A stretch of DNA of 64,000 bases. Origin: Candidatus Latescibacterota bacterium (lineage in GTDB: Bacteria > Latescibacterota > UBA2968). The notes below the pieces were generated by a model, which was given only the letters and a program-made list of their open reading frames with translations, searched no databases and had not been told where the DNA came from. Position numbers and translations under genes: made by a program. Below, in pieces: positions 1,620-63,313 of this stretch (position 1 is the first letter of the stretch; each line of letters opens with the position of its first letter). The DNA lies in assembly GCA_965198115.1 (NCBI GenBank), contig OZ240241.1:2336001-2400000 (forward strand). Direction: 5' to 3'.

Positions 1620-1635
1620 GAGCGGGAGGTCGACA

Positions 1636-7965: not shown

Positions 7966-7993
7966 TGATAGAAATTTGAGACGAGGTGAGACG

Positions 7994-13400: not shown

Positions 13401-14948
13401 GTGATCGCTTCGAGAGATTCAACCGGATGGCCGAGGATAAGATCAGAACGGGCCGCGCGCTCTTGGAGGATCGCGCTGGAAACGTGTGGATTGGGACACG
13501 CAAAAGGGGTCGTCAGATTCGATGGAAAACGCATCACATCGTACGGTGTCCGCGATGGCCTCGTCGGGAATTGGGTTGAAGATATCGAAGAGGATAGTCG
13601 CGGAAACCTTTGGTTCGCCACGGCGGGAGGTGGCATAAGTCTATTCGATGGACTGGTGTTTCAGAAATTTCAACGCCAGGACGGTCTGGTCAGCGATTTG
13701 GTAACAGGAATAACTGAAGATCGGAGGGGAAACATCTGGATTACGACTGGGGGTGGCATCACAAGATACAGGCCTTCCACTGGAGCACCTGGCATCGCGT
13801 TGACCGATGTGATCTCGGACAGGAGATACGGTCCAGTTACAGAATTGAACCTGCCGGTAACCCAGACCTATCTGGCCTTCGAGTTCAGTGGGAGAAGTCT
13901 GTCGATGCATTGGGAGGCGATCGCCTACGTTTACCAACTGGAGGGCGCAGACGAGAAGTGGAAGACCACGCGTTTGCAAAGAGTCGAGTACTCAGATCTG
14001 CCAGAGGGGCAATATACGTTCAAAGTTAAGGCCGTGGACCGTGACCTCAACTACTCGGAGATTCCGGCCACCGTGAGTATTTCGATCCGCCCTTCCTACG
14101 AGCAGATTGCCTGGAAGGGTGGTCTGGCGGTTGTAGGACTTGGTCTGATTCTCACGGCCCTCTACGGATACCGGAAGCAGAGAGAGCTTCGCCGCATCGA
14201 ACTGCTCCGAGTCGAACAGATGGAACAGGAACTTCAGACCGCCCACGATATGCAGATGAGTTTGATGCCCAAAGAACGTCCCACGCTTGCCGGCTTCAGC
14301 GTGGCTGGCGTCTGTGTTCCTGCGAGCCACGTCGGCGGAGATTTCTGGCAGTATTTCCTGAAAGAGGACAAGCTGGCCGTCTGCCTCGCAGATGTAACCG
14401 GCAAGGCGATGGAGGCCGCCATTCCAGTGGTCATGTTTTCCGGCATCCTCGAAAGTGAAATACAACACGGGATCGACCCTCGATCCCTTTTCTCTCGCCT
14501 GAATCGAACGCTATCAGGGACACTCGATAGTCGCACGTTCGTGTGCTTTGCGATGGGTGAGATCGATCTCTCAACCCGAGTTCTGCGCCTGTGCAATGCC
14601 GCTTGTCCTTATCCCTATCACTATAACGCCCAAGAGGACGAGATTCGCGAAATTCAAGCAGATTCCTACCCTCTTGGTATTCGTTCGGACACAGCTTACG
14701 ACACGGTAGAAGTTCAGCTTCAGGGATCGGACTATTTGGTCTTCGTGTCGGACGGGATCACCGAAACCGAAAACGCCGATGGTGAGATCTTTGGTTACGA
14801 CCGTACCACGGCCAGCATTCTGGAGGTGTGCCGGACAGGATCAACACCTGAGACGGTCATCGAAGGAATCCTCGAGGATGTGAACGCCTTCAAGGGAAGC
14901 GCGATCCATAGTGACGATATGACCTGCGTTGTTCTGAAAACAGAATGA
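10499..14948 (+). pseudogene. Signal peptide + two-component regulator beta-propeller repeats + Y_Y_Y + TM + SpoIIE/RsbU PP2C phosphatase; split by ISL3 and frameshifted near 13505
   Basis: Repeated DxxGxxWxGT units; YSDLPEGQYTFKVKA; VGGDF, DVTGK, SDG, DDMT; frame rejoins across the IS target duplication. Confidence 0.9.
11775..13158 (+). mobile_element. ISL3-family IS, copy 1 (36-bp internal deletion); transposase ORF 11848-13089
   Basis: IRs GGCTCTATCCGGGTTTCTCAACG / CGTTGAGAGATCCGGATATAGCC; 8-bp TSD TTATTTCG; IGIDE, CDM, LDRFH, TNAIAEGLN. Confidence 0.95.
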
Positions 14949-14984: not shown

Positions 14985-15325
14985 GAGGATGGTAGAGAAG
15001 CCAGACCCTCCACCCGCACACCGGAATGTCACGCCACCGACGCGGATGGGGCATTGTGCGGACGATTTTACCTCGACGGCCGCACTCCGGACAACAACAA
15101 CCATTCTTATGTGGCTTTACGGCGATGACGAAACAGCTTCTCCCCTCAAACCACCAGCTGACAACACGGAACCCCTTGAATCTCAGCAGTTTCGATAGTA
15201 ATCTGCTCCCGGTCATAGGTCGCACCCCCTTCGCTTTGATTGTCCTACACACACAACCAAGCGTAGGGAACGATCTATGACCTTGTCATTCTATAGTTTC
15301 ACCGTTGAGAAACCCGGATAGAGCC
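14985..15325 (-). mobile_element. ISL3 copy 2, left 341 bp only
   Basis: Reverse complement of the IS left end; identity stops at 14985. Confidence 0.95.
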
Positions 15326-16025
15326 TGTTAAAATGGATGATTGTGAAATCTCCTGCCTCGGCCACCGCGTCGAACGTCGTCCCGCTCCCCATCCCGCTCG
15401 TCGTCACGAGCAGATCGGGCCCTGCTTCCTTTGTCACGCCGATCAGCTCCACCTGACCCTCGTTTGACCGCAACCACTCCCCTTCCTGCCAGTTCGCGTA
15501 GCCCGCGTGCGCAAACTCGTTCGCGATCTCCATCGCCACGTGCGTGTAGCCTTGTGTCACCACCCATCCAGTCGCGTTCTCAACCGCCGTTCGCAACGTC
15601 TGCCGATCGCCGAGCGCTCGCGGGTAACTGTGCTGTCGCTGGTAGAAACAGCTCAGGATGATCGCACAGCCGTTGTCGTCCGCAGCCTCGATCACTCGTG
15701 CAATCCGGTCAAGGTAGCCGTTTCGCAGCGACCCATCCGCATTGAAAGCAGAATTGACCGCCCCTTCGTAGTTCGGCGCTCCCCCCTGCAAGCTGATCGT
15801 GAAAGCCCGAACCCCGTGCGCCGCGTACTCCGGAATCCGGGCAACAAACCGGTCCGTGTTCGCCTCCGGATCGAATCCTGCCATCACATCCGGCACATCC
15901 CCGCGATCGTCCTCGAACACGCAATTCACCATCCGCACGTTCGTCAGCAGACCCTCCGCCGGACTTCCCGGATGGATTACCTCCCCATCGAACAGCCAGT
16001 TCATCCCGTCGATCGATATCCGCAT
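15326..16025 (-). pseudogene. Glycoside-hydrolase-like (clan GH-A type) protein truncated by ISL3
   Basis: GVRAFTISLQGG, EIANE; C-terminal LYPGFSTVKL is IS-derived. Confidence 0.6.
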
Positions 16026-16061: not shown

Positions 16062-16091
16062 ACACTTCGACTCCGCTCAGTGTGACGGTGT
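16062..16091. repeat. REP-like element
   Basis: Identical to 9638-9667. Confidence 0.75.
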
Positions 16092-16278: not shown

Positions 16279-17865
16279 ATGATCACCCTCATCCACTCCG
16301 GACGCATCATCGACGGTACCGGCAATCCGTGGTATCACGGCGACGTCCTCCTCGACGATGGCCGCATCGCCGCCATCGAACCGCTCGGCAAGATACCGCA
16401 CACATCCGTCGATGACGTCATCGACGCGACCGGCCACGTCGTCTGCCCCGGCTTCATCGATATCCAGAGCCACTCGATCGTCCCCCTGATGCGGGATGGG
16501 CGATGCCTGTCGAAGATCACGCAGGGCATCACGACAGAGATTATGGGCGAAGCCTGGACGCCTGCACCGGTCGGCGCTGACTCCGCGCTCTCGAGCCGGA
16601 TCCCTGAGGACTGGAGGGACAGGGCCCGTAGCTGGACACGGTTCGGCGATTGGCTCGACGCGATGGTCAAGGCGGGCGTCTCGCCTAACGTAGGTTCCTT
16701 CCTCGGCGGCGGCACGTTGCGTTCTCTCGCGATGGGAATGCGAATGGACGAGCCAACCGATGGAGAGTTGAGCACGATGCGTCGGGTGATGGCCGAATCG
16801 ATGGAAGACGGCGCCTTCGGACCGTCCTACGCCCTTATCTATCCGCCCGACACTTACACCAACACAGACGAAATCGTCGAAATCTGCAAGGTCGCATCGG
16901 AGTCCGGCGGTGTTTACATCACCCATATGCGGTCGGAGGCGGACGAAATCTTAGAAGCGCTCCATGAAGCGATCGAGATCGGTAAACGGGCCGACCTGCC
17001 CGTCGAGATATACCACCTCAAAGCCGTCGGCGAGAGCAACTACGGCAAGATACATCAAGTCATAGAACGGATCGAGACGGCGCGTGCGGATGGCTAGGAC
17101 GTCACGGCCGATATGTATCCCTATCCCGCCAGCGGGACCGGACTCGCCACCGTGTTGCCCACCTGGGTGTCCGCGGACGGCAAGTTTTTCGACAACCTCA
17201 GCGATCCCGAAGTGCGCGAAAAGATCGTCACCGAGACCCGTGACGTGGTCGGCGAAATCCCCCGACGCCCCGACCAGATCGCCCCCGTTGCATTCAAGAA
17301 ACCGGAGAACCAGCAGTACATCGGGAAACGACTCGACGAAATCGCCAAGATGCGCGGTCAGGATTGGGTCAATGCAACCATCGATCTGCTACTCTCCGAA
17401 CACGACCGCATCTTCACCATCTACCACACGATGTCCGAAGACAACGTGCGGCTGCAGCTTCAACTCCCGTGGGTCAAGATCTCGACCGACGCAGGCGGTG
17501 TGGATCCGAAATGGGCAAAAGCGGAAGGTCCCCTTCATCCACGCGCCTACGGAACCTACCCTCGCGTCCTGGGTCATTATACGCGCGACGAGGAACTGAT
17601 GTCCCTCGAGGAATGCATACGGAAGATGACATCTTCCGTCGCGAACCGCCTGTCCCTCTGGGATCGCGGTCGACTTCAGCCCGGCTGTTGGGCCGACGTG
17701 CTTATCCTCGATCCCGACACCGTCATCGACCGGGCCACCTTCCAGGACACGCACGAGCTCTCCGTCGGCATTCGCGACGTCTTCGTCAACGGCACTCGCG
17801 TCCTCAACGATGGCGAACACACAGGCGCCACCCCCGGAACGTTCCTGAAGGGCCCAGGCGCTTGA
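16279..17865 (+). pseudogene. N-acyl-D-amino-acid deacylase (D-aminoacylase) with one in-frame TAG at 17095-17097
   Basis: [44 protein letters not shown]; both ORFs share one frame. Confidence 0.9.
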
Positions 17866-17896
17866 GCAGATCTTTCGCAATGGGGACTTGCAGGGG

Positions 17897-17945
17897 TCAC
17901 TTCGAGCACCTCGACTTCGCTCGGCACAGGCACCGTCAGAAATCA
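17897..17945. repeat. REP-like element
   Basis: GTCACTTCGAGCACCTCGACTTCGCTCGGCACAGGC. Confidence 0.6.
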
Positions 17946-17970
17946 CTGATAGAAAGGCCAACTTACTGAG

Positions 17971-19020
17971 ATGAGACGCGTTACTCGTACAGGCGGTCCC
18001 CTCGTTGAGGGTCTGGCGAGGCCAGGCGGTCACTCGCATACCCAGTCCTTCCTCACCCAGAAGTACTTCGAGTTAGAACGACGGCTCGCCTACCCTCAGA
18101 CTAAAAAGAAAGAAGCCTGGCAACAGTGGCGACGGAAACTTCGTCACGCGTTGAAGAAAACATTGTGTCTCGACAAGCTGGGCCCTATACCAAATCCTCG
18201 ACCGACCGTGACTGAAACGGTCCAGTGCAAGGGTTACCAAAGACAAAAAATCACCTACGAAACGCTCCCTGGTAACCGTGTCTCCGCGTATCTTCTCCTT
18301 CCTGAATCGCCAGCTCCACACCCCGCCGTCATCTGTCCACACGGCCACGTGACAGGCGCAAAGGACAACGTCGTCGGTCTGACCGATCCTCTGGGCGTTG
18401 CCTACGCACACGAACTCGCGTTGCGAGGCGTGGTCACGCTGGCGCCGGACAACGCGTTCATGGGAGAGCGAGACCGGGGGGACGAACGCAACGGCAATCG
18501 CGTCTCTGGATGCTCGACTGGGTGGGCTCGTCTGAACCAGATGGGGCTCGATCTCACCGGTTTTCGCATCTTCGACCTGATCGCCGGGCTGAATCTCCTA
18601 TGCGATCACCCTGGTGTGGACGCTCGCCACATCGGGTGCGCCGGCCTTTCCGGCGGATGCTGGCTTTCGCAGGTTCTGACCGCGTTGGACCGTCGGATCA
18701 AGGGCGTCATCCTGAGCGGATTCTTCACGACCTTCGTCCAGACGACGTGGCACGAGCACTGTGTATGCCATCATCCCTTCGGCATCGGCCTGTTCTGCGA
18801 TATGCCGGACCTGTCCGCGCTCATCGCACCGCGTCCTCAGTTCGTCGAGTCCGGTATCTCCGATAAACCGTATCCCCACGAGCCGGCCTATTCGATGGTG
18901 AAGAAAGCTTACGTCCTGAACGGCGCCCCAGATCACCTACAGCTCCATCGATACCGAGGCGGTCATATGTTCAACGGCAAGAAATCCATCCCCTGGCTTG
19001 TCGAACAATTGAGTCAGTAG
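17971..19020 (+). CDS. Alpha/beta hydrolase (dienelactone hydrolase/acetylxylan esterase-like)
   Basis: PAVICPHGH, nucleophile elbow GLSGG, LIAPRP, GGH. Confidence 0.85.
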   Translation: MRRVTRTGGPLVEGLARPGGHSHTQSFLTQKYFELERRLAYPQTKKKEAWQQWRRKLRHALKKTLCLDKLGPIPNPRPTVTETVQCKGYQRQKITYETLPGNRVSAYLLLPESPAPHPAVICPHGHVTGAKDNVVGLTDPLGVAYAHELALRGVVTLAPDNAFMGERDRGDERNGNRVSGCSTGWARLNQMGLDLTGFRIFDLIAGLNLLCDHPGVDARHIGCAGLSGGCWLSQVLTALDRRIKGVILSGFFTTFVQTTWHEHCVCHHPFGIGLFCDMPDLSALIAPRPQFVESGISDKPYPHEPAYSMVKKAYVLNGAPDHLQLHRYRGGHMFNGKKSIPWLVEQLSQ

Positions 19021-19047
19021 TTACCCTTCACAGAAAGAGAGCACGGG

Positions 19048-19073
19048 GTCACTTCGAGCGGAGTCGAGAAGTC
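19048..19073. repeat. REP-like element
   Basis: GTCACTTCGAGCGGAGTCGAGAAGTC; core is the reverse complement of CTCGACTCCGCTC. Confidence 0.6.
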
Positions 19074-19089
19074 CCCCTTGGAGCGGAAG

Positions 19090-19938
19090 ATGCCCAAACA
19101 ACGAACGATGAAAACACGCGTGGGTGCGGTCCAACTCATCTCGAACGAGCAAGACGTCGATGGCAACATCGAGCGATCACTCGCCTACTGCGATCGAGCC
19201 GCGCATCGTGGCGTGCAAATCCTCTGTTTTCCGGAAGGAGCCAGCACCGGCTTCGATTGGGTCAGGGGCGAAAGAGTGTCCGATTGTCCTTACGCCGAAC
19301 CCGTCCCAGGCCCGATCATGAAGAGGTTCGAGGCAAAGGCTGCCGAAACAGGGATGTACATCATCTACGGTGTCGCCGAGCGCCCGAAGGGATCCAGGAA
19401 GATTTACAACACGGCCTTTCTTGTCGGCCCGAAGGAGGGTTATCTGGGAAGACATCGAAAGGTCTTTTCCGAGAAAGTTTTCGGAAACGGTACCGACGCA
19501 AATGTCTTCGACACGCGTTATGGCAGAATCGGCATCTTCATCTGCGCCGATATGCGATCCCCCGAATTATCGCGCCTTCTCGTCCTCAAGGGTGCCCACA
19601 TCCTCTTCCAACCGACCAACTACTTTCATCCCGACGGCGTCGACATCGCCAACCGCTACCGCGGCAAGTGCACGGCTCAGAGATCCCGCGCGATGGACAA
19701 CGGCGTCCACCTGGTCATCGCCAACGCCGGACGCACCGAATACGTCAACAACAGCCGCATCATCGCGCCCGGCGGACAGGGCCCTGAGCCCAAGCTCGCC
19801 TACGCCACGCACCACGAGCAGCTCCTCGTCGCCGACATCACCTACAATCTCCGGGACAACAAAGCCCGCACCGCCGCAAAGCGCGCTCCCTGGCTCTTCA
19901 GGGAACTCGCTGGAGAAATGCGTCGCGCCGCTCGTTGA
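19090..19938 (+). CDS. Carbon-nitrogen hydrolase (nitrilase/amidase superfamily)
   Basis: Triad motifs FPE, HRK, ICAD; IYNTA. Confidence 0.9.
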   Translation: MPKQRTMKTRVGAVQLISNEQDVDGNIERSLAYCDRAAHRGVQILCFPEGASTGFDWVRGERVSDCPYAEPVPGPIMKRFEAKAAETGMYIIYGVAERPKGSRKIYNTAFLVGPKEGYLGRHRKVFSEKVFGNGTDANVFDTRYGRIGIFICADMRSPELSRLLVLKGAHILFQPTNYFHPDGVDIANRYRGKCTAQRSRAMDNGVHLVIANAGRTEYVNNSRIIAPGGQGPEPKLAYATHHEQLLVADITYNLRDNKARTAAKRAPWLFRELAGEMRRAAR

Positions 19939-20025
19939 TATGAGATTCCCTGTAGGTAAATACGATACGATTGCCACGCCTGCTCTCCCCGTCGCCCGCT
20001 CGCCCCGTCCCCCGTTCAGCCTTTC

Positions 20026-21948
20026 ATGACTAAACGCTCTTTCGCCATCGGCCTCTTCCTCTCCGTCCTAGCCGCCGTCTGGCCAGCCTGGTCGGAATAC
20101 ATCATCCACTCCTCCCGCGCCGACTACGGTCACCTGTCCGCGGCAATCCTGATCCCGTTTCTGGCTCTGATCGCGATCAACAGTCGTTTTACCAGGATGG
20201 GTGGTGGCCTGAATGCATCCGAGCTCATCGTCATCGTCGCGATGGGAATGATTGCATCCATCGCGCAGGGCGAGTGGGTCATCGGATATCTTTTCAGCAC
20301 CATCACCTCGCCCACCTATTTCGCGACCGTCGAAAACGGGTGGGAAGAAACCCTCCTTTCTACGGTCCCTCAGTGGTCCATCATCGCCGATAAGGCGGTA
20401 GCTACCGGCTTTTACGAGAGTCTCCCCTACGGCGCCGACTTTCCCTGGGCAGCCTGGGGGCCACCTTTGCTGTGGTGGGGTGGGTTCTTCGTCGCCTTCT
20501 TCCTCGCCAATCTCTGCGTCGTCGTCATTTTCCGCCGTCAGTGGACAGACTACGAGCGCCTCCCCTTTCCCATCGCCGCGGGTCTCCTCGAAATCACCGG
20601 TCAAGGCGAGGAACGTGGGACGCTCACCATCCTCGCCAGGAATCGCCTGTTCTGGATCGGGTTCGGCATCCTCTTCTTCATCTTTGGTTGGGACCAGGTC
20701 GCCTGGTTCAGCGAGTTGATGCCCGAGTTCGAACCTCAGCGCGATCGCCAGATTAACCTCATGCGAGATTTTCCTTTCCTTCGCTTCAGCCCGAACCCGA
20801 TGGCGATGACCTTCTGCTGGTTCGTCAAATCGGAAGTCCTCTTCAGCATATGGGTCTTCCATCTGTTGATGGTTCTACAGGTAGGCGTAATGAACCGGCT
20901 GGGATACGAGATGGGCTCGCCAGAACCCCTCACCTCATTCAATCCCGCGATCGGATGGCAAAGCTTCGGGGGTCTGCTCGTCTTCGTCCTGTGGGGGCTA
21001 TGGGTCGCTCGACACCATCTAGCCGCTGTATTGCGACAGGCATTCCTGAACAGGAAAGAAATCGATGACTCGACCGAACTGATGTCCTACCGCAGTGCCG
21101 TCTTCCTCTTCCTGGCGTGTGGGGGATTCTCGGGAGCATTCTTGTGGCGCTGTGGGCTCTCCCTCGGTCCGCTCCTCCTCTTCTGGCTGACGACGATGGT
21201 CCTCTATCTCGGGTTCGCACGCATCATTGTCGAAACGGGACTCGTCTTTCTTCGGGTCCCCATTTCCGGACACGACGCCGCTTGGAACCTCTTCGGCATC
21301 CAGGGAATCGACCCGGCAAGCGCGGTGGCGCTCAGTCTGGCCTACAGCTTCTTCGCCGACGGTAAGACACTGTTTATCACGACCGCTGCCCACATTCCGC
21401 GCCTTGGGGTGTCCCTCGACCGAAAGGGCCGACGGCGTTTACCCGGAGCCGTAACCCTTGCTCTCGTCGCCGGCCTGATCGCGGTGGGCGCCTTCACCAT
21501 CTACCACGGAAACTACGGGGTGGGTACGCTGAACTTTGCAAGCCCCAGCTACAACGGAGGTAACGCGAGCTTCATTTGGGGTCTCCACGCGAGTCGCATC
21601 AGAGCCGCCAGTCTGGAAGCAGATTGGACACGACTCGTCTGGCTACTGGTCGGCGCCATCTTCACGGTGTGTCTCTACAGCATTCGCTACCGCTTCCCCC
21701 GGTTTGGACTGCACCCGATCGGTTTCGCCATCTCCGGATCGGACATCCTCCGGACCGGATTCACTTCTGTTTTGCTCGTTTGGTTGGCCAAGGACCTCGT
21801 CTTCCGATTCGGCGGCCTGGATCGCTACAGACGCACCACACCCTTCGTGATGGGCGGATTCATCGGCTACCTCACCGCCGTCGCCACTGGGATCATCGTC
21901 GACGCGATTTGGTATCCGGGCAAAGGCCACCAGCTCCACGGCTGGTAG
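20026..21948 (+). CDS. 640-aa polytopic membrane protein, putative transporter (DUF6785/DUF6784-like), paralog 1
   Basis: Many hydrophobic segments; QWxDxERLPFP, RIIVETG, LHPIGF. Confidence 0.85.
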   Translation: MTKRSFAIGLFLSVLAAVWPAWSEYIIHSSRADYGHLSAAILIPFLALIAINSRFTRMGGGLNASELIVIVAMGMIASIAQGEWVIGYLFSTITSPTYFATVENGWEETLLSTVPQWSIIADKAVATGFYESLPYGADFPWAAWGPPLLWWGGFFVAFFLANLCVVVIFRRQWTDYERLPFPIAAGLLEITGQGEERGTLTILARNRLFWIGFGILFFIFGWDQVAWFSELMPEFEPQRDRQINLMRDFPFLRFSPNPMAMTFCWFVKSEVLFSIWVFHLLMVLQVGVMNRLGYEMGSPEPLTSFNPAIGWQSFGGLLVFVLWGLWVARHHLAAVLRQAFLNRKEIDDSTELMSYRSAVFLFLACGGFSGAFLWRCGLSLGPLLLFWLTTMVLYLGFARIIVETGLVFLRVPISGHDAAWNLFGIQGIDPASAVALSLAYSFFADGKTLFITTAAHIPRLGVSLDRKGRRRLPGAVTLALVAGLIAVGAFTIYHGNYGVGTLNFASPSYNGGNASFIWGLHASRIRAASLEADWTRLVWLLVGAIFTVCLYSIRYRFPRFGLHPIGFAISGSDILRTGFTSVLLVWLAKDLVFRFGGLDRYRRTTPFVMGGFIGYLTAVATGIIVDAIWYPGKGHQLHGW

Positions 21949-22132
21949 ATTCTCAGCGTGTCCCGCATCTCACCGAATTGCACAGGACGATCGTGGACAC
22001 ACATTACTCTGGCCTACAGATGATCCACGTCGCAAACCAAATGAGACAGTGTCTCAGCCAAAGCCAGCGCGTGTCCCTTGCCACGCCTGCTCCCCCCGTC
22101 TCCCGCTCGCCCCATCCCTCGCTCGGCTTTTC

Positions 22133-24055
22133 ATGACCAAACGAGCCTTCATCCTCGGCCTCCTCCTCTCGATCGTTGCCGCCATCTGGCCCGCCTGGTC
22201 CGAGTACATCATCCGATCCTCCCGCGCCGACTACGCCCAGCTTTCGGTCGCGATCCTCATCCCTTTCCTCGTCCTGATCGTCGTCAACAGCACCCTCTCC
22301 AGGAAGGGGCGAGGGTTGGCCGCTTCGGAGCTGATCCTGATCGTCTCGATGGGTATGATCGCCGCCCTCGCACAAGGCGAATGGGTCGTGGGTTTTTTCC
22401 TCGGGACCATAACGTCACCCGCCTACTTCGCCACCGCCGAGAACGGCTGGGCCGAGGCCCTGCTCACGACCATTCCCCGGTGGTCGATCATCGCCGATCG
22501 GCACGCAGCGACAGGCTTCTACGAAGGCCTGCCTTTCAGGGCTGCTTTCCCGTGGTCGGACTGGTGGCCCCCGCTCCTGTGGTGGAGTGGGTTCCTCCTG
22601 GCCTTTTTCCTCGCCAACCTGTGTGTCGTCGTCATCTTTCGGCGACAATGGATGGATTACGAACGTCTCCCTTACCCGATCGCCGTCGGCCTCCTGGAAA
22701 TGACCGGCCAGGGAGAAGAACGTGGCACCCTCACCCTCCTCTTTCGAAGCCGCCTGTTCTGGATCGGCTATGGCATTACTGCATTCTTCTTCATCTGGGA
22801 CCAGGTGGCCTGGTTCAGTGAACTCCTGCCCGAGATCGACCCCCAGCGCGACCGCATCATCACCCTCGCCAAGGGGTTTCCCGACCTACGATTCAGCCCG
22901 AACCCGATGGCGATGGCCTTTTCGTGGTTCGTTAGGTCGGAAGTGCTCTTCAGCATCTGGGCATTCCACCTTCTGATGGTGTTGCAGGTGGGCATCATGA
23001 CCCGATTCGGTCTGGAGATGGGTGCGTTTGACCCGTGGGACTCTTTCCACGTCGGAGTAGGATGGCAGAGCTTCGGAGGTCTCATCGTGTTCGTGGCGTG
23101 GGGACTGTGGATCGCGCGTGATCATCTTGCCGCCGTCATTCGCCAGGCCTTCTGGAGGACGAACGAAATCGACGATACCGAAGAACTGATGTCTTATCGA
23201 ACCGCCGTCTTCCTGTTCATCGCCAGCGCTCTCTTCAGTGGCACCTTTCTCTGGCAGTGTGGCCTCTCTCTAGGCCCTCTCCTGACCTTCTGGGGTGCAA
23301 CGGTCGTCTTCTACCTCGGCTTCGCGCGTATCATCGTTGAAACGGGGCTCGTCTTCCTGCGTACCCCGATCACCAGCCAAGCTTTTACGTGGCGTCTCTT
23401 CGGAATCCCTGGCATCGACCCCGCCAGTGCCACGGCGCTGGGTTTGACTTTCACGTTCTTTGCTGACGGCAAGACTCTATTCATCACCACCCTCGCCCAC
23501 ATTCCGCGTCTTGGTCTCGCCGTGGACCGCGAGGAACGCCGGCGTCTTCCGGCAGCGGTTACGACCGCACTCATCGCTGGGTTGGTTGCCGTGGGCACTT
23601 ACACCATCTACCACGGCTATTATGGGGTGGGCACGCTCAACTTCGCGAGTCCAAGCTATAACGGCGGCAATGCGGACGGCGCGTGGGGTATCACCGCCGC
23701 GCGCATCCGGAGCAGCGGCATGAAGACTGACTGGAGACGCATCATTTTTTTGATCGCTGGAGCAGTCTTCACCGCCTGTCTATACGGTATTCGATATCGA
23801 TTCCCTCGCTTCAGCCTGAACCCCATCGGGTTCGCAATCTCCGGCTCGAACATTCTACGAAGCGGGATCACCTCGGTCTTCCTCATCTGGTTGGCCAAGA
23901 ACCTCATCATTGGCCTCGGCGGTCCGGAGCGTTACAGACGCGCGACCCCCTTCATTATGGGAATGCTCCTGGGCTACCTCACCGCGATCACTACCGGCAT
24001 CGTCGTGGACGCCATCTGGTTTCCAGGCAAAGGCCACCAGCTCCACGGCTGGTAG
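22133..24055 (+). CDS. 640-aa polytopic membrane protein, paralog 2
   Basis: ATG chosen by alignment (MTKRAF); 1923 nt, colinear with paralog 1. Confidence 0.85.
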   Translation: MTKRAFILGLLLSIVAAIWPAWSEYIIRSSRADYAQLSVAILIPFLVLIVVNSTLSRKGRGLAASELILIVSMGMIAALAQGEWVVGFFLGTITSPAYFATAENGWAEALLTTIPRWSIIADRHAATGFYEGLPFRAAFPWSDWWPPLLWWSGFLLAFFLANLCVVVIFRRQWMDYERLPYPIAVGLLEMTGQGEERGTLTLLFRSRLFWIGYGITAFFFIWDQVAWFSELLPEIDPQRDRIITLAKGFPDLRFSPNPMAMAFSWFVRSEVLFSIWAFHLLMVLQVGIMTRFGLEMGAFDPWDSFHVGVGWQSFGGLIVFVAWGLWIARDHLAAVIRQAFWRTNEIDDTEELMSYRTAVFLFIASALFSGTFLWQCGLSLGPLLTFWGATVVFYLGFARIIVETGLVFLRTPITSQAFTWRLFGIPGIDPASATALGLTFTFFADGKTLFITTLAHIPRLGLAVDREERRRLPAAVTTALIAGLVAVGTYTIYHGYYGVGTLNFASPSYNGGNADGAWGITAARIRSSGMKTDWRRIIFLIAGAVFTACLYGIRYRFPRFSLNPIGFAISGSNILRSGITSVFLIWLAKNLIIGLGGPERYRRATPFIMGMLLGYLTAITTGIVVDAIWFPGKGHQLHGW

Positions 24056-24304
24056 ATCTTCGACGCAGAATACCAACAGGAGCTAATGACAACCGAGGTC
24101 GATGACAATAAGACACCTTCAGAAGCGGCTGTTCGAAGTCGGAGACTTCTCCCACAGAACCCAAAAGGGCGAAGCCCGTCTATCCCGTCCACTGTCTACC
24201 GTCCACCGTCCACTTATTGCAGCCGGGAGGCTACTCCTACCCAATCGAAGGTGCGAAGGCCGCATTTCTGCCGACCGCCCACCGCCCTCCGCCGACAGCT
24301 TTTT

Positions 24305-24344
24305 CTCCCCTGCTCCCGGGCTCCCCTGCTCCCCTGCTCCCCTG
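24305..24344. repeat. CTCCCCTG octamer tandem repeat; G-quadruplex-type motif on the minus strand
   Basis: Five C3-C4 tracts at 8-nt spacing, ending just before the ATG at 24352. Confidence 0.75.
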
Positions 24345-24351
24345 CAGTTCT

Positions 24352-26274
24352 ATGACTAAACGCGCCTTCCTCCTCGGCCTCTTTCTCTCCATCCTTGCCG
24401 CCGTCTGGCCTGCCTGGTCGGAGTACATTCTACGTTCCTCCCGAGCCGACTACGGCCACCTCTCGGCTGCGATCCTGATTCCTTTCCTCGCCCTTCTCGC
24501 GATTAACAGCCGATTTGCGAAGGTTGGCCGCGGTCTGAATGCACCGGAGCTGATTCTCATCGTTTCGATGGGGATGATCGCCTCGCTCGCCCAGGGCGAA
24601 TGGATCGCCGGATACTGGCTCGGCACGATCGCGGCCCCAGCCTACTTCGCCACGGTCGAGAACGGATGGATGGAGGCCCTGCTCCCGACTGTCCCGAGGT
24701 GGTCGGTCATCGCCGATCGACAGGTAGCAGCGGGATTCTACGAGGGGTTGCCCTTCGGCGCGGAATTCCCGTGGGCAGCGTGGTGGCCGCCGTTACTGTG
24801 GTGGACCGGCTTCTTCGTCGCCTTCTCCATCGCCAACCTTTGCGTCGTCATCATCTTCAGAAAACAGTGGATGGACCACGAGCGCCTGCCCTACCCCATC
24901 GCCGTCGCCTTGCTTGAGATGACCGGCCAGAACAGCGACCGCGGCTCGCTCACATCCCTCTTCCGTAACCGTCTTTACTGGATCGGTTTCGGCATCACTT
25001 TCTTCCTCTATGGGTGGGATCAGCTGGCCTGGTTTAGCGAACTGCTACCCAGGATCAATCCTCAAAGCGATAGAGTCATCTATCTGATGAAGGATTACCC
25101 CTACCTGCGTTTCAGTCCGAACCCGATGGCAATGGCGTTTTCCTGGTTCGTCAAATCGGACGTCCTCTTCAGCATCTGGGCCTTCCATCTCTTGATGGTC
25201 CTGCAGGTGGGAATTATGAACCGGTTCGGCTATGAAATGGGCTCACACGATATGCTAGCTTCGTTCCACCCCGCGATCGGATGGGAGAGCTTCGGCGGCC
25301 TCACGGTATTCGTTGGGTGGGGCGTCTGGATCGCCCGTCACCATCTGAGGGCTGTGATCCGACAAGCGGTTCGAAACACGAACGAGTTGGACGATTCCGA
25401 GGAGTTGATGTCCTACCGAGCAGCATTCTGGCTGTTCATCGTCTGTGGGCTCTTCAGTTTCGCATTTTTTCTGCACTGCGGTCTTTCATTCGGTCCCTCA
25501 GTTGCGTTCTGGCTCGCCACGGTCGTGCTCTACCTCGGCTTTGCGCGTATGATCGTGGAGACGGGTCTTGTCTACCTCCGAACGCCCATCACCGGCCAGG
25601 CCTTTGCCTGGCATATTCTCGGAAGCACAGGGATCAGCAACGCCAGCGCCACGGCGTTGTCATTGACCTACACGTTCATAGCCGACGCAAAGGTCCTCTT
25701 CATCACGACCCTTGCGCACATCCCCCGGCTTGGCCTCGCCGTCAGTATCAAGGATCGTCGTCGCCTGCCGGCGGCGGTCACGAGTGCCCTCGTCGCAGGA
25801 CTGGTCGCCGTCACTGCCTTCACCCTCTACCACGGCTATTACGTAATGGGGACGATCAACTTCAACAGTCCCAGTTACAGCGGCAGCAACGCCAGCGGTG
25901 TGTGGGGCATCACCGCGTCCCGTATCCGGGCGGCAAACGTGGCGACCGACTGGAAGCGAATCACCTGGTTCCTCGTCGGCGCAGCCTTCACGGCCGGTCT
26001 GTATGCGATCCGCTATCGTTACCCGCGTCTGGCTCTCCATCCGATCGGCTTCACAATCACTGGATCCAACGTCCTGCGAACAGTCGTCTCCTCTGTCTTC
26101 ATCGTCTGGCTCGCCAAGGTCCTGGTCATCGGACTGGGCGGTCCCGAGCGATACCGACGAGCCACGCCCTTCATCATGGGCAGCCTGATCGGCTACCTCG
26201 CCGCCATCGCCACCGGCATCGTTGTCGACGCCATCTGGTTTCCCGGCAAGGGTCACCTGCTCCACGGATTCTAG
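24352..26274 (+). CDS. 640-aa polytopic membrane protein, paralog 3
   Basis: MTKRAF start; 1923 nt, colinear with paralogs 1 and 2. Confidence 0.85.
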   Translation: MTKRAFLLGLFLSILAAVWPAWSEYILRSSRADYGHLSAAILIPFLALLAINSRFAKVGRGLNAPELILIVSMGMIASLAQGEWIAGYWLGTIAAPAYFATVENGWMEALLPTVPRWSVIADRQVAAGFYEGLPFGAEFPWAAWWPPLLWWTGFFVAFSIANLCVVIIFRKQWMDHERLPYPIAVALLEMTGQNSDRGSLTSLFRNRLYWIGFGITFFLYGWDQLAWFSELLPRINPQSDRVIYLMKDYPYLRFSPNPMAMAFSWFVKSDVLFSIWAFHLLMVLQVGIMNRFGYEMGSHDMLASFHPAIGWESFGGLTVFVGWGVWIARHHLRAVIRQAVRNTNELDDSEELMSYRAAFWLFIVCGLFSFAFFLHCGLSFGPSVAFWLATVVLYLGFARMIVETGLVYLRTPITGQAFAWHILGSTGISNASATALSLTYTFIADAKVLFITTLAHIPRLGLAVSIKDRRRLPAAVTSALVAGLVAVTAFTLYHGYYVMGTINFNSPSYSGSNASGVWGITASRIRAANVATDWKRITWFLVGAAFTAGLYAIRYRYPRLALHPIGFTITGSNVLRTVVSSVFIVWLAKVLVIGLGGPERYRRATPFIMGSLIGYLAAIATGIVVDAIWFPGKGHLLHGF

Positions 26275-26487: not shown

Positions 26488-27153
26488 TTGTTGTTCGGTC
26501 AACGCGAACGAATCCGACGGAAACCAAGGAGAAGGAAAAGCGCATTCACACCAGCCGTCAAGGCCATCCAGACTCAAAAGGGATCGAGATCCTCTTACGC
26601 GAAAGTCGAAGAAAGTGGGGGTTGGAATGACGAAATCACGTCCGGCCTCGAGACCTTCCTGACCGACCTGGACATGTTCTACTTCGGCACGGCGAACCCA
26701 GAGGGACAACCCTACATCCAGTATCGCGGGGGCAAGCCGGGATTTCTGAAGGTCGTCGGCCGCCGGGCCCTGGCCTTCGCCGATTTCCGCGGCAACCGCC
26801 AGTACATCTCCGTCGGCAACCTCAGCGAAAACCCGAAGGCTTTCATTTTCCTGATCGATTACGCCCACAGCCGTCGCATCAAAATCTGGGGCACCGCAAG
26901 AGTCGTCGAAGACGATCCCGAGCTCCTCGAGCGCCTCACCGACGACGACTATCCTGGGAAGGTCGAGCGCGCCATCGTCTTCACGATCGAAGCCTGGGAC
27001 ATCAATTGTCCCCAACACATTCACAAACGCGTACTCGAATCGGACGTCGCACCCATCATTGAAGACCTACAGGCTCAGATTCAGGTGCTTCAACGAAAGC
27101 TGGAGAAATACAAACTGACAGAGGAAATGGAGAGCGTCGCGGCGATGGCGTGA
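26488..27153 (+). CDS. Pyridoxamine 5'-phosphate oxidase-related FMN-binding protein (start uncertain)
   Basis: AFTPAVKAIQ, PYIQYRGGKPGFL, FADFRGNRQYISVGNL, WDINCPQHI. Confidence 0.85.
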   Translation: MLFGQRERIRRKPRRRKSAFTPAVKAIQTQKGSRSSYAKVEESGGWNDEITSGLETFLTDLDMFYFGTANPEGQPYIQYRGGKPGFLKVVGRRALAFADFRGNRQYISVGNLSENPKAFIFLIDYAHSRRIKIWGTARVVEDDPELLERLTDDDYPGKVERAIVFTIEAWDINCPQHIHKRVLESDVAPIIEDLQAQIQVLQRKLEKYKLTEEMESVAAMA

Positions 27154-27189: not shown

Positions 27190-27660
27190 ATGAATCTCAT
27201 ACAACTGCAATTCACGACGAACAACCGGCTGGTCGGAAGTGTTCGTTTAATGCTCGCTCTCATCTTCCTGATGACAGGCCCCATGAAGCTCCTCGTCCCA
27301 AGTCTGGCCGAGGCCTGGACAGGCCAACTGTTGGCGGCTCAACTTCCGTTTTATGAATTGGCACGGTGGACGGTACCCTTCCTTGAGCTTGTCCTCGGCG
27401 TGTTTCTGGCAATCGGTCTGTTCGTGCGACCTGCAGTATTCGTGGTGACAGGCATCATGATCGTAGCCACCTATGTGCACGTGATCGTCGACGACCCGTC
27501 TCTTTTCCCACTTCAGCCCAGCGAGCCCATTGTCCCCATCCTGGTCATCCTGGGCAGCGTCTACCTCCTGTGGCGGGGCGCTGGTGCCTGGAGCAAAGAC
27601 CTGAAATCAACGCATATCAATCGTCCGTTTACACACCCGGTTCGTAAGGAGGTAACGTGA
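27190..27660 (+). CDS. DoxX family membrane protein
   Basis: RLMLALIF...K, ELVLGVFLAIG, GAGAWSKD. Confidence 0.8.
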   Translation: MNLIQLQFTTNNRLVGSVRLMLALIFLMTGPMKLLVPSLAEAWTGQLLAAQLPFYELARWTVPFLELVLGVFLAIGLFVRPAVFVVTGIMIVATYVHVIVDDPSLFPLQPSEPIVPILVILGSVYLLWRGAGAWSKDLKSTHINRPFTHPVRKEVT

Positions 27661-28267: not shown

Positions 28268-29389
28268 ATGATCATCGATAGCCACGCTTACTGCTTCCAA
28301 CCCGGCGACTCCCTCGCCGGTCATCCGACGGTCGAGGAACACCTCGCCTGGGCTCAGACCGCGCAGACGCGCCATCACCAGCCCGCCTTCCGCATACGCG
28401 ACCGTGCCCCTGGCTCCTCGGAAGTCCTCGGACCCGAGACACCGATGGACTGGTCCGGCCTGCCCGACGTCAACTTTCGCATCGATCGCGAGAAGGGTCG
28501 TGTCGTCTGGACGGTCGATGGCGAGGACTACACGAAGCACTTCTATCCCCCCAACCTCCGAAATCTCGAGTTCACACCGCATAGTCTCATCTCGGAAATG
28601 GACTACGCGCGTGTCGACTACGCCTTCATCCATACCAACCCGATGCTCGGTCGCGATGCTGCCTTCCTAGCCGAATGCATCAGGCTCTATCCCGACCGCC
28701 TGGGTTCGATGGCGCCGGTCGACGAGTGGAGAATCCTATCCGACACCGACGCGGTTATCGCCGAAATGCAGACCGCAATACGCACACACAGCCTCCACGC
28801 CCTCAAGTTCAACACCCGGGGCGCGTTTCACGCGAACACGATGCCCTGGGACGACGGCCCTTACCGACCTTTCTGGGAGGCTTTCGTCGAGCTGGGTGTG
28901 CCCGTCTTCTTCACGCTCGGCTGCGGTCCGAACACACCCGCCGGTGCGTCAACAGGGCCTCAGTTTACCCAGGGCTACATCGATGAGCAGCGCATCCTCA
29001 TCGACTGGATGAACCGCTATCCCGACACGATCTGCAGCATCACCCACGGCTTCCCCTGGCGCGTCTTCGTCGAAGGCGACAGCATCACGTTGCCCGACAA
29101 CGTCTGGATCCCCTTTGAGAATTCGAAACTCAGTCTCGAGGTCTGCTTCCCCGTCCGCATCGGCGACCTGTTCGAGTTCCCCTATCACGAAGTCCATCCA
29201 ACACTCGAAGCAATGGTCCGCCACATCGGCTCCGATCGCCTCCTGTGGGGCACCGATATGCCCTTCCAGAACCGCTTCTGCACGTATCGCCAGTCCCGTC
29301 AATGGATCGAGAAATACTGCGCCTTCCTGACCGACGAAGACCGCGCGAACATCATGGGCAACACCTGCGCCCGAATCCTGGGGTTATAG
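28268..29389 (+). CDS. Amidohydrolase_2 family protein
   Basis: MIIDSHAY start, THG, DRLLWGTDMP, IMGNTCARI. Confidence 0.85.
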   Translation: MIIDSHAYCFQPGDSLAGHPTVEEHLAWAQTAQTRHHQPAFRIRDRAPGSSEVLGPETPMDWSGLPDVNFRIDREKGRVVWTVDGEDYTKHFYPPNLRNLEFTPHSLISEMDYARVDYAFIHTNPMLGRDAAFLAECIRLYPDRLGSMAPVDEWRILSDTDAVIAEMQTAIRTHSLHALKFNTRGAFHANTMPWDDGPYRPFWEAFVELGVPVFFTLGCGPNTPAGASTGPQFTQGYIDEQRILIDWMNRYPDTICSITHGFPWRVFVEGDSITLPDNVWIPFENSKLSLEVCFPVRIGDLFEFPYHEVHPTLEAMVRHIGSDRLLWGTDMPFQNRFCTYRQSRQWIEKYCAFLTDEDRANIMGNTCARILGL

Positions 29390-29624: not shown

Positions 29625-30590
29625 ATGGCTTCTCTATCTATCGCCGTAATCGGCGCCGGCAACATCGCCCAGCAGCACCTCCCTGTCCTTCGTGCGCTCC
29701 CGGAGTGCGACCTCGTCTCTCTCGTCGACACCAACGCCGACACCCTCGCAGAATCAGCCGATCGCTTCGACGTCCCAAACCGCTGCACGTCGGTCGACGA
29801 TCTACTCGACCAGAACCGTCCCGACGCCGTCTTCGTCCTCGTCAGCGTCCTGCACGTGGCCGATGTCGTCACCCGCTTCCTGACCGAGAGAATTCCCACG
29901 TTTACCGAAAAGCCCCCGGGTCTCTACACGCGTCAAACCCGCGCTCTTGCCAAACTGGCTCAGGAAAGGGGCACACCGGCGATGGTCGGCGTCAACCGCC
30001 GCTTCTACAGCACCCTCACCGAGGGCCGTCATAAGCTTCTCGACGAAGGGCCCGTGCGAAGCGTCACCGTCGACGCTCACGAGGACATCGATCGACTACG
30101 CACGGGAACCAAGTTTCCGCCCGAAGTCATCGCCCGATGGAGCGCCGCCAACGGAATCCACGCGCTCGACTTGCTCCGTTACTTCGGTGGAGATGTGGCG
30201 AAAGTCGAATCCGTTCAACAAATCGTGGAAGGCCCGATGCCGGACGGGGTGACTGCCACGCTCGAATTCGAAAACGGCGCACACGGCCGCGCGTCAATGG
30301 ACTGGTTCGCGCCCGGCGATCATCGCTTCGAAGTGCGTACCACAGCTGCTACACTCACATCCAATCGTGGTTACAGCACCGTCCTCCTCCGTCGTCGCGC
30401 CAAGGATCCGGAAGAGATTGCACTCAGCGACATCGACCGACAATTCAAAGCCGGCTTCTATCGTCAGGACCAGACCTTCCTGCGATCGGTTATCGACGGC
30501 GTACCCTTTCCCGATCCCGCTTGCACACTCGATGACGCAGTCAAAACGATGGAAATGATCGACGCCATTTGTGGTCACACAGAGGCTTGA
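29625..30590 (+). CDS. Gfo/Idh/MocA oxidoreductase
   Basis: IGAGNIA, EKP, GVNRRF, GIHALD. Confidence 0.9.
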   Translation: MASLSIAVIGAGNIAQQHLPVLRALPECDLVSLVDTNADTLAESADRFDVPNRCTSVDDLLDQNRPDAVFVLVSVLHVADVVTRFLTERIPTFTEKPPGLYTRQTRALAKLAQERGTPAMVGVNRRFYSTLTEGRHKLLDEGPVRSVTVDAHEDIDRLRTGTKFPPEVIARWSAANGIHALDLLRYFGGDVAKVESVQQIVEGPMPDGVTATLEFENGAHGRASMDWFAPGDHRFEVRTTAATLTSNRGYSTVLLRRRAKDPEEIALSDIDRQFKAGFYRQDQTFLRSVIDGVPFPDPACTLDDAVKTMEMIDAICGHTEA

Positions 30591-61309: not shown

Positions 61310-63313
61310 CTACCACCCGTGTATCCTGTGCCCCCCATCCGGGAAGAACAGGAGATCGACGAGGGTACCCGTACCGAGTCCGGCAACATACCCCACCACA
61401 AGCCCGAAGAAGAACGGCCTCGCCCGGTTGAACAGATCGATGCCGCCGATCCTCATGATCAGGATTTTGGCAGCCCAGACCAGCAGCATGCTGAACGCGT
61501 AGTATTCCGATCCGTTCGAGTCCTGAAACGCGAGGCCGAGGGGATGCACCGGCCACTAGGGAATCCTGTTGTAGAGGACCATCAGGAGCCCCGCTCCAGC
61601 GATTCCACCTAGCCAAACCGTCGTTCTGCCTGGGTTAAACCCCGTCCGATCCGTGTCGATCACGGCAGAGACCATCCTGTGGTAGGTATCCCGATTGGCC
61701 TTGACAAGCCCGCTCAACCCGAGATTCTGCCCGGCGTGTTCGTAACCGAGGTAGATGATCAACAGACAGGAGCCGATGAACGTCGCTGAAAAAACGAGGA
61801 TCACCGTCCACGGAGTCCAGTGGCGTCTTCGGTCGGACCCGAAAAGCCTCAGGTAGTGAGGCAGGGCAGGCCGGGATGCGTTGCCTGCCGAAAAAGGCGT
61901 AGGAGTTGATCGTGCCCATCCCCACGATCTCTTTAGCGGTCATCCCGCGCGTGCCTCCCAACGACAGAATGACATTCCCTCCCTTCTCGGCGACGGGGAA
62001 CAGATAGGCAAAACCCGTCGCGGCCGTGAACTTGGCCAGCGTAAAGTATGCGATGTACATCAGCCCGAGCTGACAGACCGCCATCCACGGTGTCAGACCC
62101 ATCGCGAGAAAGCAACCCAGCAGATAGAGCGTCACCAACGAAAATCCGAGGAGCGCAACCCGATAAGGCATCACGCCGTTGTCACCGGGACCAGGGACAC
62201 CCGTTCTTGCAGCCTGCCAGACGTGCCGCAGATGGTGCCTGGCAATCCAGACCGACCACACGGCCAGAAACACCATCGCACCGTGCGATTCGAGCATGAT
62301 GAACTCCGATTTCGGTTGCCCGATCGTCGCGTTTGTGGCTGAGGAATAGCCGATCGAAACACCCAGTCGGGCCATCACGCCTTCTTTCAGGATCGCAATC
62401 AACCGGAAGAGCCAGAAACTCAGAAGCATGTCCGAGTTACACAGGTAGGTCAGACCGATGACGGGTGGCATCACGCGCAGGTAGACGGCGGGAACATCCG
62501 CCCAACCGGGAGCCCCTTGAGTTCCACCGTGTCGTAGATCGTGATCCGCGGCAATTCCTGCGTAAAGTAGCCCGCAATGTTCCACGCAATGACCAGGAAG
62601 ACGACGAGGAAACCGGCCTGGAACGCACGGTCCTTGAAAACCGGAGGAATCCGTTCCTTCCCATCGAAGCCCTCGGTCAACGCCAGGGCAAACGTGGACA
62701 GCGGAAACGTCAACCGCTCTGCGTCTTCCCATTGACGCTGGAAGACCACGGACAGACATAGTCCGGCGATCACGAGGGCGATTGAAAACGAGAACCACCA
62801 GTAGAGCGGGGCCAACCACCCTGACCATGGGATGCTGGCCCCCTCGGGCAGACCCTCGTAAAAAGCGACGATGACTTCCTTGGAATCCGTCGGATAGCAC
62901 CACCACGGCATCACATCGAACAACACTTCCTCCCACCGGTTCTCCGCCGATGCGTAGTAGACCGGTGAGCTGATGATGCCGCCCCAGTAGGCGAGCCAGC
63001 CACTCGCGGACATCGTTCCCACGATCCACGACAAGCTGTAGATCACGACCAGCTCCCCACCAGACAGCGCGAGTCGAGGAACGATCAGTCGGAGAATCGT
63101 GTTGATCAGAAGCCACGCCACGAACGGGAGCAGCATCGCCATCGGCAGCTGGGATTTCACCAGCGAAGCACCCCCGATGATCAGCCCGGCGTAGTTGCTG
63201 TAGAGATTCAGCAGGACGCCCGTGGCCACACCGAGGACCACGCCTCGGACCGTCAGCGTGGATCGAGTGCTTTCGGGCTGTGGGTATGGGGATATTTCAG
63301 CTTGCGGAGGCAT
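61310..63313 (-). pseudogene. Fourth, divergent DUF6785/6784-like membrane protein with two frameshifts and an in-frame TAG (61556-61558)
   Basis: QWEDAERLTFPL, IP*WPVHPLG, ARPFFFG, HRIHGW; shifts near 62480 and 61865. Confidence 0.85.

Follow-up and report, generated by a model that had tools for sequence, protein, structure and literature searches.

Three tandem DUF6785/DUF6784 paralogs of a Latescibacterota bacterium are predicted OPT/Yellow Stripe-fold transporters and candidate importers of acylated organic acids

Three adjoining paralogs in a Latescibacterota genome, here called A, B and C, are likely (rough probability 0.55) to be separate ion-coupled, elevator-type importers with an OPT fold, which would take up small N- or O-acylated organic acids for deacylation by the hydrolases encoded next to them. 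They lie in a stretch of 64,000 nucleotides that was analyzed as a whole (the window) and that harbors the following features, compared where indicated with the sister species G001:

15291..16004, minus strand: divergent gene with a weak GH5-like match below the cut-off; syntenic in the sister species
16279..17865, plus strand: D-aminoacylase-like amidohydrolase pseudogene (Amidohydro_3) with an in-frame TAG at 17095-17097
17971..19020, plus strand: alpha/beta hydrolase (Abhydrolase_7) with a GxSxG motif, related to putative acetyl esterases
19108..19938 (alternative start 19078), plus strand: nitrilase-superfamily C-N hydrolase with a Glu-Lys-Cys triad
20026..21948, plus strand: paralog A, DUF6785+DUF6784, 640 aa, predicted OPT/YSL-fold transporter
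22133..24055, plus strand: paralog B, 640 aa, 72% identical to A and 85% to its ortholog in the sister species
24352..26274, plus strand: paralog C, 640 aa, 70-72% identical to A and B
26491..27153, plus strand: PNPOx-like flavoprotein, after the last transporter gene here and in the sister species
28268..29389, plus strand: Amidohydro_2 enzyme, syntenic in the sister species (81%)
29625..30590, plus strand: Gfo/Idh/MocA oxidoreductase, syntenic in the sister species (80%)
~61310..63241, minus strand: fourth DUF6785+DUF6784 copy, 27-37% identical to A, with two frameshifts and an in-frame stop

The transporter genes are colinear and intact, as the first-pass annotation had described; each runs for 1923 nt from ATG to TAG without an internal stop, and the products align without gaps at 70-72% pairwise identity. 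The equal length that had been singled out reflects shared ancestry only (copy A of the sister species has 639 aa). The intactness of all three is likewise unremarkable, since they are three of 49 DUF6785 family genes in this genome, which include five tandem arrays and of which 31 genes are intact; three intact copies are expected by chance with a probability of about 0.23-0.24. The proposed domain identity was borne out, as both models match within one chain far above their cut-offs (DUF6785, PF20581: 305-327 bits, cut-off 25; DUF6784, PF20580: 62-65 bits, cut-off 26.4), and A, B and C are full members of these Pfam families, for which Pfam gives no function. A literature search found no paper naming either domain, an NCBIfam scan of the three proteins gave no match and searching PDB sequences with a profile of the family returned nothing relevant. 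Selection between the paralogs, a check suggested along with the annotation, was found to be purifying (dN/dS 0.13-0.15 among paralogs and 0.09-0.10 among orthologs, upper bootstrap limits below 0.20). The fourth copy, correctly recorded as divergent and broken, is unrelated to the triplication. A DUF6785 frame of 980 aa in the sister species carries no additional domain, and its extra length is probably spurious.

A relation to OPT transporters had been suggested from a sequence motif and is supported by the predicted model of paralog A (pLDDT 89.7, pTM 0.90), the one model used for the fold test, which was based on Foldseek and its re-alignment. Two Foldseek matches were obtained at E ≤ 0.001, both to barley YS1 (E 1e-6, TM 0.58-0.63), the only OPT-family member among the structures searched. 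VIA placed residues 1-635 of the model on residues 49-668 of the YS1 chain with a Z score of 21.6 and an rmsd of 4.0 over 540 residues, the next-best fold reaching a Z score of 5.5. A, B and C are thereby predicted to have the OPT/Yellow Stripe core plus scaffold over the whole chain, although PF03169 and TIGR00728 gave no match in them or in the whole genome at E ≤ 0.1. Two distant DUF6785 proteins do exceed the PF03169 cut-off (36.6 and 28.7 bits). When profiles were aligned, a weak but colinear match of 512 columns to canonical bacterial OPT proteins was obtained (probability 2.4%, E 0.019), in which the stretch R-x-Q-W-x-x-x-E-x-L-x-F-P is aligned to OPT LRRxLIVEEKELxYPEG. Atlas neighbours carry automatic names such as peptide transporter or OPT (scores 0.77-0.79), which were taken as a lead only. 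On the basis of the model the triplet is predicted to work like an OPT, and it is filed as a sister branch of the OPT/YSL family (PF03169; TC 2.A.67), not as a PF03169 member.

With barley YS1 (HvYS1; PDB 7WSR/7WST/7WSU; PMC9691689) the triplet shares the predicted whole-chain fold and similar length as well as, in the same order, an N-terminal helix-loop-helix hairpin, a second helix that is interrupted and a C-terminal tail of short length, whereas identity is 9-12%, the triplet is bacterial and its neighbours are catabolic enzymes instead of iron genes. Prokaryotic OPT proteins (PF03169, TIGR00728) were called biochemically uncharacterised in 2011 (PMC3061005), and their genome context also points to organic substrates. 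The same paper places NPG and KIPPR motifs in many, not all, members of the peptide-transporter clade; neither motif occurs in the sequences of A, B or C. In comparison with the prokaryotic OPT proteins, the triplet has an insertion of ~50 residues after TM2, and canonical OPT gives one strong match each in 7 of 81 genomes of the phylum, whereas DUF6785 is present in tens of copies.

By analogy with YS1, a putative substrate pocket may be lined by the hairpin loops 28-38 and 405-416, an unwound TM2 (Q81-G82-E83-W84) and TM9 (D445, K447, T452, H456). Secondary-structure order and conservation, mapped by profile alignments, are compatible with the YS1 site (TM1-H1 and TM8-H6 hairpins, unwound TM2, TM9). 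The residues at these positions hardly vary among the 70 closer homologs, whereas the 44 distant ones have others. The proton-binding residues Asp446, Asp490 and Asp494 of YS1 fall near F408, T452 and H456 in this rough mapping, and neither they nor the DMA-binding residues have clear counterparts in the triplet, where the conserved E403, D445 and H456 are candidate proton-coupling residues. The pocket signature is kept almost in full by all three paralogs, which differ from each other at the pocket rim, so their substrates are likely to overlap. Fixed differences between A and B (64 of 640 positions overall) are densest in loop 293-306 (5/14) and around 405-427 (5/23); these clusters were not counted as evidence because they are too weak after 18 segments. 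If YS1 is a valid guide, the core domain would move as an elevator and import would be coupled to protons or another cation, without an ATPase or binding protein. The earlier observation that no gene for an ABC ATPase or solute-binding protein is adjacent held for the window genes scanned, and none was found among 150 neighbours of other DUF6785 copies in this genome.

Three hydrolase genes (Amidohydro_3, Abhydrolase_7, CN_hydrolase) do precede the triplet on the same strand, as had been annotated, but an intact three-hydrolase system was not confirmed, since the gene for the aminoacylase-like enzyme is disrupted here, in the sister species and in a further genome (G010). The best solved relatives of its product belong to the D-aminoacylase/OngB family (PDB 1M7J, 3GIP, 9KB1; E 1e-75 to 1e-56), and the positions of His220, His250 and the catalytic Asp are kept. 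The Cys/His/His site with HxH and catalytic Asp that marks D-aminoacylases of subtype V was not found in an intact gene; QxH stands in place of HxH and Gly-Glu(-Ala) in place of the Cys ligand, and the same motif variant occurs in 11 intact orthologs among 12 loci. OngB illustrates that the D-aminoacylase fold can also deacetylate an amino-sugar acid (PMC12017989). Readthrough of the TAG was rejected, because TAG serves as the stop codon of A, B and C alike and a sense codon occupies this position in orthologs. A contig of 1475 nt from run X1 shows the same TAG, but it is not independent, as X1 is probably the source sample. Read cover of the gene was not continuous in three independent runs, and such a hole carries no weight. 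The aminoacylase-like step is lost in this strain, and the retention of the transporters despite this loss counts against a link between the two. The C-N hydrolase belongs to the nitrilase superfamily (PF00795 119.6 bits, Glu-Lys-Cys triad in the alignment), and neither it nor the alpha/beta hydrolase has a signal-peptide-like N-terminus. Synteny with the sister species and purifying selection were found for the genes of the esterase, the C-N hydrolase, the Amidohydro_2 enzyme and the oxidoreductase. A sigma-70-like promoter was not found on the plus strand of the locus, where promoter and terminator scans were at chance level.

Recurrent linkage to hydrolases, which had been anticipated, was found for the subfamily of the triplet and not for its own hydrolases. 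With the amide-hydrolase set fixed only after a neighbourhood scan had been viewed, an amide hydrolase lies within two genes in 7/20 subfamily clusters compared to 2/63 distant clusters (Fisher p 5e-4). The p-value rises to 0.017 when four D-aminoacylase-linked clusters are counted as one event (4/17) and to 0.018 with a broader set including peptidases (9/20 vs 11/63). The linked enzymes represent four unrelated folds (D-aminoacylase-like, amidase, formamidase, aspartoacylase-like) and are about 10 times commoner than beside distant subfamilies or in the genome background (3.0% of all genes). The subfamily was delimited at 42% identity or more with a clade support of 1.0; a narrower group defined by identity (49% or more; 7/8 with amide-hydrolase links) was dropped for not forming a clade. 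The counts exclude the cluster of the triplet itself and include L045 once, and of 71 distant clusters they omit three that were not scanned (L135, L116, L246), two whose locus was shared with another row and three whose locus was shared with subfamily genes. Pfam thresholds varied by scan (1e-6, 1e-9, 1e-12) and some proteins were cut at 550-600 aa.

The same survey lends weight to another explanation, possible though clearly less probable, in which OPT-fold importers of plain sugar acids or small carboxylates stand by chance beside these hydrolases in a shuffled, catabolism-rich genome. The other 13/20 subfamily clusters have neighbours such as uronate dehydratase, enolase-like, sulfatase, pectate lyase and PhyH proteins, many of them sugar-acid enzymes, and the closest outside cluster (61%) lacks all of these hydrolases. 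Orthologs of the window hydrolases in other genera do not stand within two genes of DUF6785 (0/12, 0/9 and 0/7, together 0/28, some contigs being short), which speaks against a self-contained conserved module. The Amidohydro_2 enzyme and the oxidoreductase are the conserved genes downstream, and transposases make up 21/150 neighbour genes of other DUF6785 copies and 7 of the 43 window proteins scanned. Against this stand the enrichment of amide hydrolases itself, the amidase or formamidases adjoining 2/4 outside lineages of the triplet's own clade, and the esterase and C-N hydrolase, which have remained in place under selection since this species and its sister diverged. Import of acylated acids is our preferred reading: A, B and C would each work separately, and the neighbouring, probably cytoplasmic, hydrolases would then deacylate the imported acids. 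Gene context suggests N-acyl amino acids or acylated amino-sugar or sugar acids as the substrate class. The N-acyl amino acids or peptides originally proposed are one option, and acylated sugar acids agree no less well with the gene neighbourhoods.

That A, B and C form one obligate hetero-oligomer, as the first-pass annotation had also considered, is improbable. The genes are tandem, co-oriented and all under purifying selection, they are kept together in strains from four other studies, and YS1 is a dimer via its scaffold (PMC9691689), so paralogs could pair. However, the tandem origin predates the split from the sister species, which has A and B only (the next gene follows 250 nt past B on the same contig), and C dates back as far as the ortholog splits of A and B; a species with two copies argues against an obligate complex. 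The closest outside relatives are single genes, the pocket signature is nearly complete in each paralog, and in YS1 each protomer has a site to itself and a monomer may work. The branching order of A, B and C was not settled by the tree, and no window of raised identity indicated gene conversion. A predicted complex of A and B (residues 141-640 each) scored 0.00, which according to the tool is neither for nor against binding.

Quite unlikely, too, is import of metal-chelate complexes as in plant YS1. In its favour, the one structural relative that has been solved transports Fe(III)-phytosiderophore, the prokaryotic members of the OPT family fall on its iron-siderophore side (PMC3061005), and a TonB-dependent receptor gene lies 16 kb downstream, but siderophore and metal-homeostasis families do not stand out among the neighbours scanned, the YS1 ligand residues are not recognisably retained at 9-12% identity, and 49 copies beside varied catabolic enzymes are a better fit to carbon or nitrogen uptake. 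A role as product exporters, sensors or scaffolds is also quite unlikely. The fold alone gives no direction, and genes for histidine kinases, TPR proteins or an FtsX/M28 protein adjoin some family members, but those OPT/YSL proteins that have been characterised act as uptake symporters, A, B and C have no added signalling domain, and the neighbours are mostly degradative enzymes, at this locus without signal-peptide-like N-termini.

The locus is one among many tandem arrays and not a new kind of system. As three natural variants of one pocket, with candidate substrates and partner enzymes adjoining, the triplet is convenient for studies of substrate range and of the elevator mechanism. A wider proposal, to which we give somewhat less than even odds, is that DUF6785+DUF6784 proteins are a hidden sister branch of OPT/Yellow Stripe transporters and have become a main system by which Latescibacterota take up organic nutrients, more numerous than the MFS, sodium:solute and family-5 ABC proteins counted in this genome (30 MFS_1, 11 SSF and 9 SBP_bac_5 matches at E ≤ 1e-10); its subfamilies would have distinct pocket signatures, and that of the triplet (R31/D33/QGEW/D445/K447/H456) would import N-acylated acids. 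If this is true, a prokaryotic transporter with the OPT fold would for the first time have a substrate class open to assay, and should DUF6785 proteins be importers, tens of transporters per genome are missing from reconstructions of Latescibacterota genomes.

The tandem triplet of membrane paralogs is real, is under selection, and encodes transporters with a predicted OPT/YSL fold (the family of barley Yellow Stripe 1, YS1); the cluster around it is conserved at the level of the genus. The first-pass annotation had placed three intact genes of equal length at 20026, 22133 and 24352, and all three were recovered there:

20026-21948, + strand: paralog A, 1923 nt, 640 aa, without internal stops, DUF6785 + DUF6784
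22133-24055, + strand: paralog B, 1923 nt, 640 aa, without internal stops, DUF6785 + DUF6784
24352-26274, + strand: paralog C, 1923 nt, 640 aa, without internal stops, DUF6785 + DUF6784

The three proteins align without gaps at 70-72% pairwise identity and form one clade with full support, and the repeat unit extends ~55 nt 5' of each start codon. The proposed comparison of dN/dS between the paralogs gave 0.13-0.15, far from 1, and orthologs gave 0.09-0.10 (bootstrap upper limits < 0.20; values rough, with dS > 1). In the sister species, gene order is conserved and A and B have orthologs (81% and 85%), while no ortholog of C turned up, either at the locus or among the 47 candidates scored in this 95% complete genome. 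As C predates the ortholog splits of A and B in the tree, its loss in the sister species is the simplest reading. In all four runs from four other studies the three genes lay on single contigs at ~94-96% nucleotide identity, and two of these contigs also include the esterase and C-N hydrolase genes.

To the earlier suggestion of an OPT-like protein, structure prediction gave clear support. An AlphaFold2 model of A, built on a 114-sequence alignment (pLDDT 89.7, pTM 0.90), yielded two Foldseek matches at E <= 0.001, both to YS1 (E 1e-6, probability 1.00, TM 0.58-0.63). Structural re-alignment to 997 chains placed YS1 at Z 21.6 (rmsd 4.0, 540 residues, model 1-635) and the next fold at Z 5.5, which makes the predicted OPT/YSL fold a strong assignment. 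Sequence comparison points to OPT kinship weakly but consistently: a profile search of the genome with Pfam OPT (PF03169) gave no match, alignment to canonical bacterial OPT proteins was colinear over 512 columns but weak (probability 2.4%), and two distant DUF6785 proteins exceeded the PF03169 cut-off. We conclude that the DUF6785+DUF6784 family probably works like OPT, as a sister branch and not as a PF03169 member. In the literature searched, no paper naming DUF6785, DUF6784, PF20581 or PF20580 and nothing relevant joining Latescibacterota with OPT terms was found. Passages of two Latescibacterota genome papers describe other transporters and no OPT (PMC4454575, PMC12993501), passages of a PF03169-based 2026 preprint on YSL origins mention no DUF, and prokaryotic OPT homologues have been described as uncharacterised, probably peptide carriers (PMC3061005).

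In YS1, the core domain holds substrate in a site formed by the TM1-H1 loop, unwound TM2, TM9, H6 and H7; it is proposed to slide, proton-driven, against the scaffold through which the dimer is linked, a functional monomer not being excluded (PMC9691689). For yeast Opt1p a rocker switch was argued in a 2026 review (PMC13642987), so the elevator model is unsettled across the OPT family. From secondary-structure order and profile alignments, the YS1 pocket would correspond to residues 28-38, 81-84, 405-416 and 445-459 of A. Among 70 closer homologs, R31, D33 and D445 are conserved in 69, G82, E83 and H456 in 70 and K447 in 68, and the same positions are mostly different in 44 distant homologs, which is what a subfamily-specific pocket would predict. 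The carboxylate-binding role of YS1 Lys482 may fall to K447. Relative to the subfamily consensus, A is different at residues 416-418; Gln at 36 is seen in B alone.

The triplet is one array of a lineage-wide expansion, as is evident from the many copies and arrays in this genome and the phylum. The single 8.43-Mb contig of the assembly contains 62 PF20581 (DUF6785) matches, against none in 14 control genomes; after fragments were merged by hand, these correspond to 49 genes, of which 31 are intact and 18 are broken. Median identity among intact copies is 34%. Five tandem arrays hold 12 genes in total. Other transporters gave 30 (MFS_1), 11 (SSF) and 9 (SBP_bac_5) matches at E <= 1e-10. Of 81 genomes of the phylum, 73 had detectable members of the family, as did all 61 of the class (first-look candidates, 15-68 per genome with at most 16 scored, exceed gene numbers), and a further triplet occurs in genome G022. 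The intactness of all three copies, earlier taken as notable, has a probability of ~0.23-0.24 by chance given 31 of 49 intact genes. The fourth copy, described as divergent and broken, is indeed both (~61310-63241), its nearest relative being another paralog elsewhere in the genome. Two dispersed copies (G000:C1:3143797 and 5228482) are 98% identical, a recent duplication, and after a distant DUF6785 gene (L033:6986-11560) comes a gene for a 1524-aa protein that contains peptidase M28 and FtsX-like permease domains. Divergent OPT-like proteins with weak PF03169 and no DUF6785 match occur elsewhere in the phylum (L143-L155). At L152 (10-1818 and 1838-3277) one such gene precedes a DUF6785 gene by 20 nt, a better candidate hetero-pair than A, B and C.

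All three hydrolases reported upstream of the triplet were found, in the order Amidohydro_3, Abhydrolase_7 and CN_hydrolase, but an in-frame TAG at 17095-17097 interrupts the D-aminoacylase-like Amidohydro_3 gene (16279-17865). The same bases occur in a 1475-nt contig of run X1, probably the source sample. The counterpart of this gene in the sister species has a deletion and a frameshift and that in G010 has stops; in genus g4, a match was found in 17 of 21 genomes, each of them listed as free of internal stops. The D-aminoacylase-like subfamily with QxH and Gly-Glu replacing HxH and Cys, apparently an uncharacterised metal-site variant, is intact at 11 of 12 ortholog loci (L259-L270). Inspection of the N-termini revealed no hydrophobic stretch in any of the three hydrolases, so hydrolysis would come after uptake: substrate would be imported first and then cleaved by the neighbouring enzymes.

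Short intergenic repeats surround the hydrolase genes (16067-16086, 17900-17940, 19048-19067), at which contigs from other runs are interrupted or align to many places. DoxX and 160-aa membrane-protein genes (27190-28142), between PNPOx-like and Amidohydro_2 genes, were not found at the sister-species locus. Four of seven transposase ORFs in the window are ISL3, one of which (12145-13089) appears to interrupt a beta-propeller/SpoIIE sensor gene (10502-14948). A Na+/phosphate cotransporter (6871-8659) appears divided into membrane and PhoU-domain parts 28 nt apart.

Recurrent linkage to hydrolases held for the subfamily only in part. From fetched loci, 220 full-length homologs were grouped into 93 clusters at 70% identity and two genes per side were scanned; homologs at >=42% identity are monophyletic (34 of 34 tips, support 1.0). 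Eight of 71 distant clusters were dropped: three without a scan (L135, L116, L246), two at the same locus as another row and three at the same locus as subfamily genes; L045 was counted once. An amide hydrolase lay within two genes in 7 of 20 subfamily clusters, the triplet's own left out, vs 2 of 63 distant ones (p 5e-4, for an enzyme set chosen only after the neighbour scan and for related, hence not independent, clusters); as background, at least 3.0% of all genes in the genome have one by local search. The seven linked clusters comprise an amidase, a formamidase pair, an aspartoacylase-like and four D-aminoacylase-like cases, and counting the last four as one event leaves 4 of 17 (p 0.017). 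The remaining 13 adjoin sugar-acid, sulfatase or PhyH genes, and the closest outside cluster has none of these amide hydrolases within two genes. The window's own hydrolases did not follow the pattern: in other genera, no DUF6785 gene lay within two genes of their orthologs (aminoacylase-like 0/12, C-N hydrolase 0/9, esterase 0/7), one of which has a copy ~7 kb off. Among the neighbours of these orthologs are dehydrogenases of the short-chain and zinc types, aldose epimerases and a GDSL esterase. By raw count, PhyH-family dioxygenases are very common, with four in the window (744-2487, 35402-36196, 46982-47788) and 10 among 150 neighbours of other DUF6785 copies (L021-L059).

Family-5 solute-binding protein genes lie directly 3' of some subfamily members (L061:7703-9484, L062:7975-11471, L160:4183-5964, L162:3969-5714). 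These genes may be parts of an ABC system, as ABC permeases lie two genes further on at L061; OPT-fold transport assisted by a binding protein is a possible alternative.

At L070, L172 and L190, a subfamily transporter and a D-aminoacylase-like gene accompany glucosamine-6-phosphate isomerase-family, acetate kinase or SelA-like genes, sets which look like an N-acetyl amino-sugar acid pathway. OngB, of D-aminoacylase-type fold, is able to deacetylate an amino-sugar acid (PMC12017989). Given these gene sets and the OngB activity, acylated sugar acids are as plausible a substrate as N-acyl amino acids. The triplet likely imports small organic acids, and that these are acylated compounds processed by the neighbouring enzymes is a moderately supported guess, to which we give a probability of about 0.55.
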